Shown: in pieces, positions 38,792 through 39,198 of the stretch
Numbering within the stretch: position 1 is the first letter of the stretch
Layout: each line of letters opens with the position of its first letter
DNA from: Escherichia coli
GTDB lineage: Bacteria > Pseudomonadota > Gammaproteobacteria > Enterobacterales > Enterobacteriaceae
Length of the DNA: 45,643 bases
Reading direction: 5' to 3' (one strand)
Assembly: GCF_003334355.1 (NCBI RefSeq)
Contig: NZ_QOWP01000030.1
The notes under the pieces: model-generated
Database searches by the model: none
The model's input: only the letters and a program-made list of their open reading frames with translations
What the model was told of the DNA's origin: nothing
Translations under genes and position numbers: made by a program

Positions 38792-38905
38792 ATGTGGTAT
38801 TTCGCATGGATTCTGGGAACGCTTCTTGCCTGTTCGTTTGGGGTAATCACCGCGCTGGCGCTTGAACACGTCGAATCAGGCAAAGCCGGTCAAGAAGACA
38901 TCTGA
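38792..38905 (+). CDS. cydX: Cytochrome bd-I oxidase small subunit (37-aa single-helix membrane protein)
   Basis: ATG at 38792 preceded by AAGGAG; encodes MWYFAWILGTLLACSFGVITALALEHVESGKAGQEDI; the stop overlaps the ybgE ATG (TGATG). Confidence 0.9.
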   Translation: MWYFAWILGTLLACSFGVITALALEHVESGKAGQEDI

Positions 38906-39198
38906 TGAGTAAGATTATCGCGACTTTGTATGCGGTAATGGACAAGCGCCCCCTGCGGGCGCTTTCCTTCGTGATGGCGCTTCTGTTAGCAGGATGTATG
39001 TTTTGGGACCCATCTCGTTTTGCCGCGAAGACCAGTGAACTGGAAATCTGGCATGGTTTATTGCTGATGTGGGCCGTCTGTGCTGGTGTGATTCACGGCG
39101 TGGGCTTTCGTCCGCAGAAGGTTCTTTGGCAAGGGATTTTTTGCCCATTGCTTGCCGATATTGTTCTCATTGTCGGGCTGATTTTCTTCTTCTTTTAA
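38905..39198 (+). CDS. ybgE: Small inner-membrane protein of the cyd operon (CydZ/YbgE family), unknown function
   Basis: 97-aa hydrophobic ORF translationally coupled to cydX. Confidence 0.88.
   Translation: MSKIIATLYAVMDKRPLRALSFVMALLLAGCMFWDPSRFAAKTSELEIWHGLLLMWAVCAGVIHGVGFRPQKVLWQGIFCPLLADIVLIVGLIFFFF

Follow-up and report, generated by a model that had tools for sequence, protein, structure and literature searches.

The stretch analyzed here, 45,643 nt of Escherichia coli DNA (contig NZ_QOWP01000030.1 of assembly GCF_003334355.1; hereafter the window, numbered from its first base), carries the genes mngB, cydA, cydB, cydX, ybgE, ybgC, tolQ, tolR, and tolA in that order, and our subject is the junction between cydX and ybgE together with an RNA hairpin, HP2, that lies near the beginning of ybgE. 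The window is chromosomal E. coli DNA: Many complete E. coli genomes match the 801 bases around cydX–ybgE with 100% identity, and the region is present in 5426 of the 5426 complete genomes. cydX (38792–38905; all features named here are on the + strand unless stated) lies directly 3′ of cydB, which ends at 38777, and its ATG is preceded at a distance of 6 nt by the Shine–Dalgarno (SD) sequence AAGGAG (38780–38785). It encodes a single-helix subunit of cytochrome bd-I, and ybgE (38905–39198) encodes an inner-membrane protein with three hydrophobic helices. The two genes meet at TGATG (38903–38907), where the stop codon TGA (38903–38905) and the start codon ATG (38905–38907) have the A at 38905 in common. 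Downstream of the ybgE stop codon, a terminator-like hairpin and T-run (39220–39250) marks the end of the full-length operon transcript; a consensus scan places it at 39220–39243, its fold has a free energy of −18.8 kcal/mol (z = −4.6), and a promoter-like site follows ahead of ybgC. The pair thus closes the cyd operon, as had been proposed in an earlier note on this DNA made from the sequence alone.

That note had also described the pair as genes of 37 and 97 amino acids joined by a TGATG overlap, a description with which the coordinates, the family models, and the RefSeq annotation all agree; RefSeq already names both genes. The 37-residue cydX reading frame is shorter than the 60-residue default of the open reading frame (ORF) lister, which reports it only when the threshold is lowered. 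The CydX protein, MWYFAWILGTLLACSFGVITALALEHVESGKAGQEDI, scores 70.7 bits against TIGR02106 (cutoff 31.6), its residues 1–37 are identical to chain X of PDB entry 6RKO, and the same sequence is chain X in nine PDB entries of bd-I, including 6RKO and 6RX4. According to a 2025 review, CydX copurifies with CydAB and is required for activity (PMC12648545). Nothing about the cydX product is new: The gene matches the CydX (YbgT) family (TIGR02106/PF08173) fully in sequence, score, and place after cydB, with no difference. Similarly, ybgE matches the YbgE family over its full length and in its place after cydX, again with no difference, scoring 185.2 bits against NF007881 (cutoff 116), 141.8 bits against TIGR02112 (cutoff 89.55), and E = 1.1e-33 against Pfam PF09600. 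To describe selection on both genes we used 43 Enterobacteriaceae species with ungapped orthologues. In ybgE, nucleotide diversity at codon positions 1, 2, and 3 is 0.17, 0.07, and 0.45, and the median ratio of nonsynonymous to synonymous substitution rates (dN/dS) is 0.087 in frame, compared with 1.4 and 3.4 in the other two forward frames; for cydX the ratio is 0.093. The in-frame value indicates that ybgE is translated and under purifying selection.

The position of ybgE is conserved as well. It lies directly 3′ of cydX in 81 of 81 Enterobacteriaceae loci (the 80 closest from a scan with a 13-sequence alignment plus the window itself, all Enterobacteriaceae-like), and likewise for all 12 of the distant proteins that we looked up, at 24%–64% identity. 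Because ybgC-tolQRA follows directly downstream in E. coli and many relatives, one might ask whether ybgE functionally belongs to this Tol-Pal cluster and not to the oxidase. We consider this highly improbable and reject it on synteny: Between ybgE and ybgC lie a terminator and a promoter-like site, the overlap of ybgE is with cydX and not with ybgC, and three distant loci (L083, L088, and L091) keep ybgE after cydX with no ybgC-tol genes downstream, which ties the gene to the oxidase. We conclude that ybgE is a genuine, translated gene devoted to bd-I. The family is small, with 75 clusters at 50% identity among 1.84 billion representatives, and mostly gammaproteobacterial; AFDB names place YbgE in Enterobacterales, Vibrionales, Pasteurellales, Aeromonadales, Oceanospirillales, and Pseudomonadales, plus one Sulfuriferula.

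The one-base overlap is found in 76 of the 81 loci, as TGATG in 47, TAATG in 28, and TAGTG in one. The stop codon thus drifts while the geometry stays, which points to selection on the overlap arrangement itself and bears out the earlier note's view of the genes as joined. At the same time, ybgE lacks a Shine–Dalgarno sequence and hence an independent ribosome-binding site: The best duplex with the anti-SD sequence in the 22 nt before its ATG reaches −3.0 kcal/mol, compared with −8.0, −6.9, and −8.4 kcal/mol for cydA, cydB, and cydX, and the columns of the cydX Shine–Dalgarno sequence are invariant across the 43 species. An invariant purine tract, AAGAA (38892–38896), lies 9–13 nt before the ybgE ATG within cydX codons 34–35, whose third positions never vary in those species even though synonymous alternatives exist. 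Given that duplex energy of only −3.0 kcal/mol, the tract is not a true Shine–Dalgarno sequence, and it is possibly a weak ribosome-contact element. More generally, 9 of the 115 degenerate codons of cydX plus ybgE show zero third-position diversity, and 8 of these 9 synonymous sites fall between −13 and +60 of the ybgE ATG (cydX codons 34–35 and ybgE codons 4, 5, 14, 15, 18, and 20).

The exceptions to the overlap are informative. In four of the five, an element of about 127 nt resembling the enterobacterial repetitive intergenic consensus (ERIC) sits directly after the old TGATG or TAATG (L024:4876–5006, L050:1087–1217, L059:4867–5000, and L080:4867–5003), with a core, CCCCAGGAGCTTAC...GTAAGTGACTGGGG, that matches the standard ERIC1R/ERIC2 primers. 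The genomes concerned are Raoultella terrigena, a metagenome-assembled genome, a Lelliottia sp., and Citrobacter sp. MGH106. The split ybgE of these loci has a new N-terminus (MIKYIYA...) and 94 amino acids, and is preceded by a strong AAGGAGG or AAGAGG site; where the insertion abolished coupling, an independent ribosome-binding site has taken over. The hairpin inside ybgE is still present in these loci. In L080 there is also an apparent second ERIC-like copy between ybgE and ybgC. The fifth exception, L054, shows an apparent frameshift or a shortened ybgE start. In the distant relatives, the genes overlap by as many as 11 nt or are separated by up to 9 nt, except at one locus, where the gap is 240 nt.

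From this arrangement we infer that most translation of ybgE comes from ribosomes that terminate on cydX and reinitiate on the spot. A first hairpin within the gene, HP1 (38914–38939), may contribute. It begins at +10 of ybgE and joins ATTATCGCG (38914–38922) with TGCGGTAAT (38931–38939) in 9 bp around an 8-nt loop. In an RNAalifold analysis of 20 species its pairs are kept in 19–20 of the 20 at most positions, with almost no covariation, and ybgE codons 4–5, which it includes, have invariant third positions. We propose that HP1 hinders independent ribosome loading on ybgE. Alternatively, ybgE could be driven not by coupling but by its own sigma-54 promoter inside cydX, since a published chromatin immunoprecipitation sequencing study reports a sense-oriented sigma-54 site there, IS08 (TGGGAACGCTTCTTGCC, 38815–38831), 82 nt upstream of ybgE (PMC4591121). 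However, this site belongs to the lowest occupancy class (FAT = 1) with a weak motif score of 6.85 (PMC4591121), its essential −24 GG is kept in just 30 of 81 species, as the leucine codon involved is often TTA, and a separate promoter would leave the conserved overlap unexplained. On the low conservation of the −24 GG we reject this promoter, and think it very unlikely that ybgE depends on it.

The second hairpin, HP2, occupies 38940–38967. Its core is formed by ybgE codons 14–20 (AAG-CGC-CCC-CTG-CGG-GCG-CTT): AAGCGCCC (38944–38951) pairs with GGGCGCTT (38957–38964) in 8 bp, six of them GC pairs, around a 5-nt loop (38952–38956). The core extends by GGA/TCC across a 1-nt bulge to as many as 11 bp, TCCTT follows it, and the stem with its tract spans 36–65 nt into ybgE. 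A 40-nt window on HP2 has a free energy of −18.7 kcal/mol, so that it ranks in the top three of the 3.3-kb operon for stability, level with the terminator after ybgE (−18.7 versus −18.8 kcal/mol); the 46-nt HP2 segment folds at −19.2 kcal/mol. The tract after the stem in E. coli is CUUUCCUU, and 71 of 75 sequences have 5–6 T in 9 nt at this place. A scan of 38400–39600 against Rfam found no family at E ≤ 1.

Comparative evidence supports HP2 as an RNA structure. Across 74 distinct Enterobacteriaceae sequences, all 592 of 592 stem cells are Watson–Crick paired. Pair 4 of the stem occurs as C–G in 35 sequences, G–C in 27, and A–U in 12, and is never mismatched, so that residue 15 is Arg, Gly, or Ser; the loop positions, which are likewise synonymous sites, vary freely. 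The observed covariation was reached in 0 of 500 shuffles, and sliding the partner columns lowers the pairing to 11%–74%. RNAalifold, given the sequences alone, recovers the stem and extends it to 11 bp (38940–38967). HP2 is found at the same codons in three loci with 49%–64% protein identity (L092, L095, and L096) and even in three Pasteurellaceae-like loci at about 30% identity, where the stem is AAGGG(U/C)UC paired with GA(A/G)CCCUU and is followed by a classical U-run, UCAUUUAUUUU; here Pro16 and Ala19 have become Ser and Thr through paired changes. In a 28-sequence alignment of all groups, 224 of 224 HP2 cells are paired, and three of the eight pairs have changed on both sides. We also observed very stable hairpins in the first 60 nt of three more distant ybgE genes (L082:937–972, L083:5017–5052, and L088:5015–5050, at −16.8, −23.7, and −21.4 kcal/mol), at nonhomologous positions and with no clear U-tract; these could be analogous elements or simply GC-rich chance.

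Such conservation could in principle be a by-product of protein-coding constraint, or reflect a palindromic DNA site for a dimeric protein, with no RNA structure involved. The region does encode a conserved peptide, DK-x-PLRALS, and 5–7 of the 8 pairs never vary. We nonetheless regard this explanation as most improbable: Codons 14, 15, 18, and 20 never vary in their third positions despite the availability of synonymous codons, while synonymous sites in the loop do vary, the pairs that do vary change on both sides and never on one, altering amino acids as they do so, and an RNA 3′ end lies right after the stem.

That 3′ end comes from the Term-seq survey of Adams et al. 2021 (supplementary files 1 and 3 of PMC7815308), which lists an end at MG1655 coordinate 774374 on the + strand, 65 nt from the ybgE start codon and classed as internal to the gene. 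It was recorded with an average of 1574 reads in lysogeny broth (LB) at an optical density (OD) of 0.4 and 1494 at OD 2.0; its Rho score is 0.82, outside Rho termination regions, and its intrinsic terminator score is 9.65, where values of at least 3 suggest intrinsic termination (PMC7815308). Coordinate 774374 corresponds to window position 38970, the C after CUUUCCUU, and thus falls inside the U-rich tract, 6 nt past the full HP2 stem and 8 nt past its GC-rich core. On this evidence HP2 probably behaves as a Rho-independent terminator, with some cydABX transcripts ending inside ybgE, and such termination probably keeps YbgE scarce. For the hairpin that follows the ybgE stop codon, the survey lists no curated 3′ end under any condition (PMC7815308). 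Neither ybgE nor cydX appears in the TERMITe supplements, and a full-text literature search found no paper combining "cydX" with "intrinsic terminator"; the +65 end seems to be recorded only in the supplementary tables of PMC7815308.

Several observations weigh against coupling and internal termination as an explanation of the locus. The Term-seq peak, at about 1500 reads, is modest and ranks toward the bottom of the table, the end is missing from the minimal-medium sheet of the same survey, and DirectRNA-seq coverage in 800-nt windows shows no drop across the site, with 180 upstream versus 209 downstream (PMC7815308); the downstream window takes in the separately promoted ybgC-tolQ genes. The folding energy of HP2 is only moderately better than that of shuffled sequences (z = −2.1), the U-tract of E. 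coli is interrupted (UUUCCUU), and a simple consensus terminator scan did not flag the hairpin. RNAalifold found two adjacent hairpins only and no competing antiterminator pairing, and HP1 is conserved without appreciable compensatory change. We have seen no experiment showing that translation of ybgE depends on that of cydX, and no phenotype is reported for ybgE.

Some of these points would also be expected if HP2 were an RNA-stability element, with full-length transcripts trimmed by 3′ exonucleases, or cut by an endonuclease, as far as the hairpin, leaving a protected cydABX mRNA. Term-seq maps 3′ ends and not termination events, the run of U is imperfect, coverage is no lower past the site, and a good terminator is present after ybgE. 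Intrinsic termination, on the other hand, predicts a 3′ end inside the U-rich tract just past the stem, which is where the end lies, and it agrees with the published score of 9.65 (PMC7815308) and with the classical U-run behind the Pasteurellaceae-like stem. We judge the stability element to be an unlikely alternative to termination. Trimming and termination have the same outcome, a cydABX mRNA that lacks ybgE.

What, then, is the protein whose synthesis is at stake? An AlphaFold2 model of YbgE (mean predicted local distance difference test score, 91.4; predicted template modelling score, 0.80) shows a short N-terminal helix and three long hydrophobic helices (residues 15–34, 48–66, and 81–96), with which hydropathy agrees, and the charge distribution suggests that the N-terminus is inside. 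The family alignment yields the signature W..G..(I/V)HGVGFxP(R/K)..W..F.P, comprising W56, G61, and (I/V)HGVGFxP(R/K) at the end of helix 2, followed by W75, F79, and P81. We considered His64 of this motif as a haem ligand and dropped it, since several relatives have Y, F, L, or A instead, so that the histidine is not an obligatory ligand. Foldseek against AFDB50 returned only YbgE family members among the matches listed. As the earlier note had supposed, no function is established: The family models name only a "cyd operon protein YbgE," and full-text literature searches found no functional study.

A few published data do touch on the gene. When a kanamycin cassette was set between cydX and ybgE, no phenotype appeared in growth or with mercaptoethanol, and none related to the oxidase (PMC6005532), and one preprint describes ybgE as dispensable for oxidase activity. 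In microaerobiosis, ybgE RNA is induced together with cydABX but less so (log2 values of 1.98 versus 2.74–2.83 for cydA, cydB, and cydX), and the protein-ratio entries of both CydX and YbgE are given as "X" (PMC8910356), which we read as not quantified. We note in passing that ybgE ranks 21st among the genes recurrently hit by transposons in a screen for better membrane-protein expression, where polar effects on ybgC-tol may play a part (PMC5638813).

One reading of the strict synteny with cydX in every locus examined, the coupling of expression to cydX, and the strong selection is that YbgE is a fifth subunit of bd-I that sits at the edge of CydAB and comes off when the complex is purified in detergent. 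There is a precedent in CydH, the fourth small subunit, which was itself recognized only through cryogenic electron microscopy (PMC12648545). However, the association with the oxidase implied by the earlier note finds no support in structures: YbgE is absent from solved bd-I, no chain in the nine PDB entries with CydX matches it, and a sequence search of the PDB with YbgE found no chain even at E ≤ 10. The missing Shine–Dalgarno sequence and the internal terminator argue for substoichiometric synthesis, and the cassette just upstream of ybgE (PMC6005532) and the preprint speak against a need for YbgE in the oxidase. A fifth subunit is therefore doubtful in our view. We infer that YbgE is instead a low-abundance, nonessential accessory or assembly factor of bd-I, a role that fits low abundance better than that of a stoichiometric subunit.

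Taken as a whole, the combination of translational coupling, an internal terminator, and a scarce accessory YbgE is the best explanation of the locus, and we give it a probability of roughly 0.6. According to this explanation, ribosomes ending cydX would reinitiate on the overlapping ybgE AUG, with HP1, from +10 on, disfavoring independent loading. HP2 would end a share of the transcripts, giving a cydABX mRNA capped by a stable and protective 3′ hairpin, so that only read-through transcripts would carry the complete ybgE, up to the second terminator at 39220–39250. The net effect would be that YbgE is much scarcer than CydA, CydB, and CydX; this is consistent with no solved complex containing it and no phenotype having been reported.

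A more speculative extension links the two processes. A reinitiated ribosome on ybgE codons 1–14 would cover the 5′ arm of HP2 and so favor read-through, and a ribosome halted at the end of cydX would fall short of the hairpin. In that case, a translation-gated attenuator, conserved from Enterobacteriaceae to Pasteurellaceae and fixing a low ratio of YbgE to CydABX, might be formed by the first 65 nt of ybgE. Because no antiterminator structure was found, gating by the ribosome can be put forward only tentatively. If it were true, full-length ybgE mRNA would be made only while being translated, and RNA structure would dictate amino acid changes at YbgE residues 15, 16, and 19.

A few further observations concern cydX and its frame relative to ybgE. 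Third-position diversity is unusually low, 0.00–0.21, over cydX codons 10–14 (38819–38833, ACG CTT CTT GCC TGT), among them two rare CTT codons for leucine; we identified no structure or signal behind this synonymous conservation, and the overall synonymous rate is lower in cydX (0.82) than in ybgE (1.42). In the cydX–ybgE arrangement, a single indel would give a fusion, and public collections contain ORFs of 131–135 amino acids that fuse the cydX frame to ybgE (P0002–P0006, P0012, P0014, and P0018). Most are single-base frameshifts scattered in the 3′ end of cydX, with few member sequences each, while P0018 looks in-frame. We reject a conserved CydX–YbgE fusion, since scattered frameshifts with few members are probably mutations or assembly errors.

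Other observations are recorded here for completeness. Two copies of the cydX–ybgE region in the E. coli genome search are plasmid-borne. The lowest ranked of 30 evenly sampled rows in that search, H38 (NZ_AP024561.1, 3815060–3815443), has ybgE in two pieces, each annotated as "cyd operon YbgE family protein." Term-seq also lists 3′ ends near cydA at window positions 36033 and 36078 (MG1655 771437 and 771482), the former just 5′ of the cydA start codon in LB at OD 0.4 and classed as "orphan," the latter a few codons inside cydA in LB at OD 2.0 (PMC7815308); these may be premature ends in the cydA leader or early ORF. In the annotation of strain CFT073, an ORF, c0813, lies antisense between cydB and ybgE, and an NsrR chromatin immunoprecipitation peak has been assigned to it (PMC5320621). 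It may correspond to a 49-residue ORF on the minus strand of the window (38734–38883) that overlaps cydX, where the forward cydX frame is the one under selection. Lastly, two GC-rich distant cydABX-ybgE loci carry a small CydP-family gene (PF28236) ahead of cydA (L083:1859–2095 and L088:1630–1803) and a divergent sigma-54-dependent activator with PAS and Sigma54_activat domains (L083:177–1496 and L088:1–1270); the E. coli locus has neither. CydP has been proposed as a bd subunit in Burkholderia (PMC9104464).

With respect to the earlier note, its observation is correct, ordinary, and already known, both genes being routinely annotated; it overlooked the conserved terminator hairpin within ybgE, a new though modest detail. 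The interest of that detail lies in YbgE being one of few core membrane proteins of E. coli without a function, and one tied to cytochrome bd-I, an oxidase that humans do not have. Synteny, selection, the missing Shine–Dalgarno sequence, and the internal terminator together predict a low-abundance accessory factor, and direct attention to substoichiometric or transient association and to conditional phenotypes. The internal terminator offers a concrete, testable reason for YbgE staying invisible: The predicted scarcity helps to explain both its absence from structures and its apparent nonquantification in one proteome study. The published 3′-end map already shows the HP2 element active, and differential expression within the cyd operon could be tested through a few synonymous mutations. 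HP2 is, in addition, a clean natural example of an RNA structure within an ORF constraining protein evolution (at residues 15, 16, and 19).

The ybgE element belongs to known mechanisms, namely, translational coupling, ORF-internal intrinsic termination, and possibly attenuation. Coupling across a UGAUG stop/start is exemplified by the trpE–trpD and trpB–trpA pairs of E. coli. cydX–ybgE resembles them in its one-base UGAUG/UAAUG overlap, the lack of a downstream Shine–Dalgarno sequence, and the conserved geometry, but differs in that its coupling is a prediction from sequence. In leader-peptide attenuation, as in the trp and his operons, whether transcription goes on depends on where the ribosome stands with respect to a terminator hairpin. 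The ybgE model proposes the same relation between ribosome and hairpin, a resemblance that is functional and hypothetical. Unlike those attenuators, ybgE has no separate leader peptide, no antiterminator was found, and the hairpin is inside a structural gene; no metabolite sensing is implied, and we claim no membership in the class. Within the Term-seq catalogue of ORF-internal 3′ ends (PMC7815308), the ybgE +65 end is one row, with a high intrinsic score and no Rho dependence. What the present analysis adds to that row is the conservation and covariation of HP2 from Enterobacteriaceae to Pasteurellaceae-like loci and its place behind a coupled start codon. Finally, YbgE can be set beside the other small proteins of bd-type oxidases, CydH/YnhF, AppX, CydY/CioY, CydZ, and CydP, which like YbgE are small, hydrophobic, and encoded with or acting on oxidases of the cydAB type. 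These are single-helix proteins of about 30–80 residues, whereas YbgE has three helices and is unrelated to them in sequence, and CydX, CydH, and AppX have been seen in structures, whereas YbgE has been seen in none.

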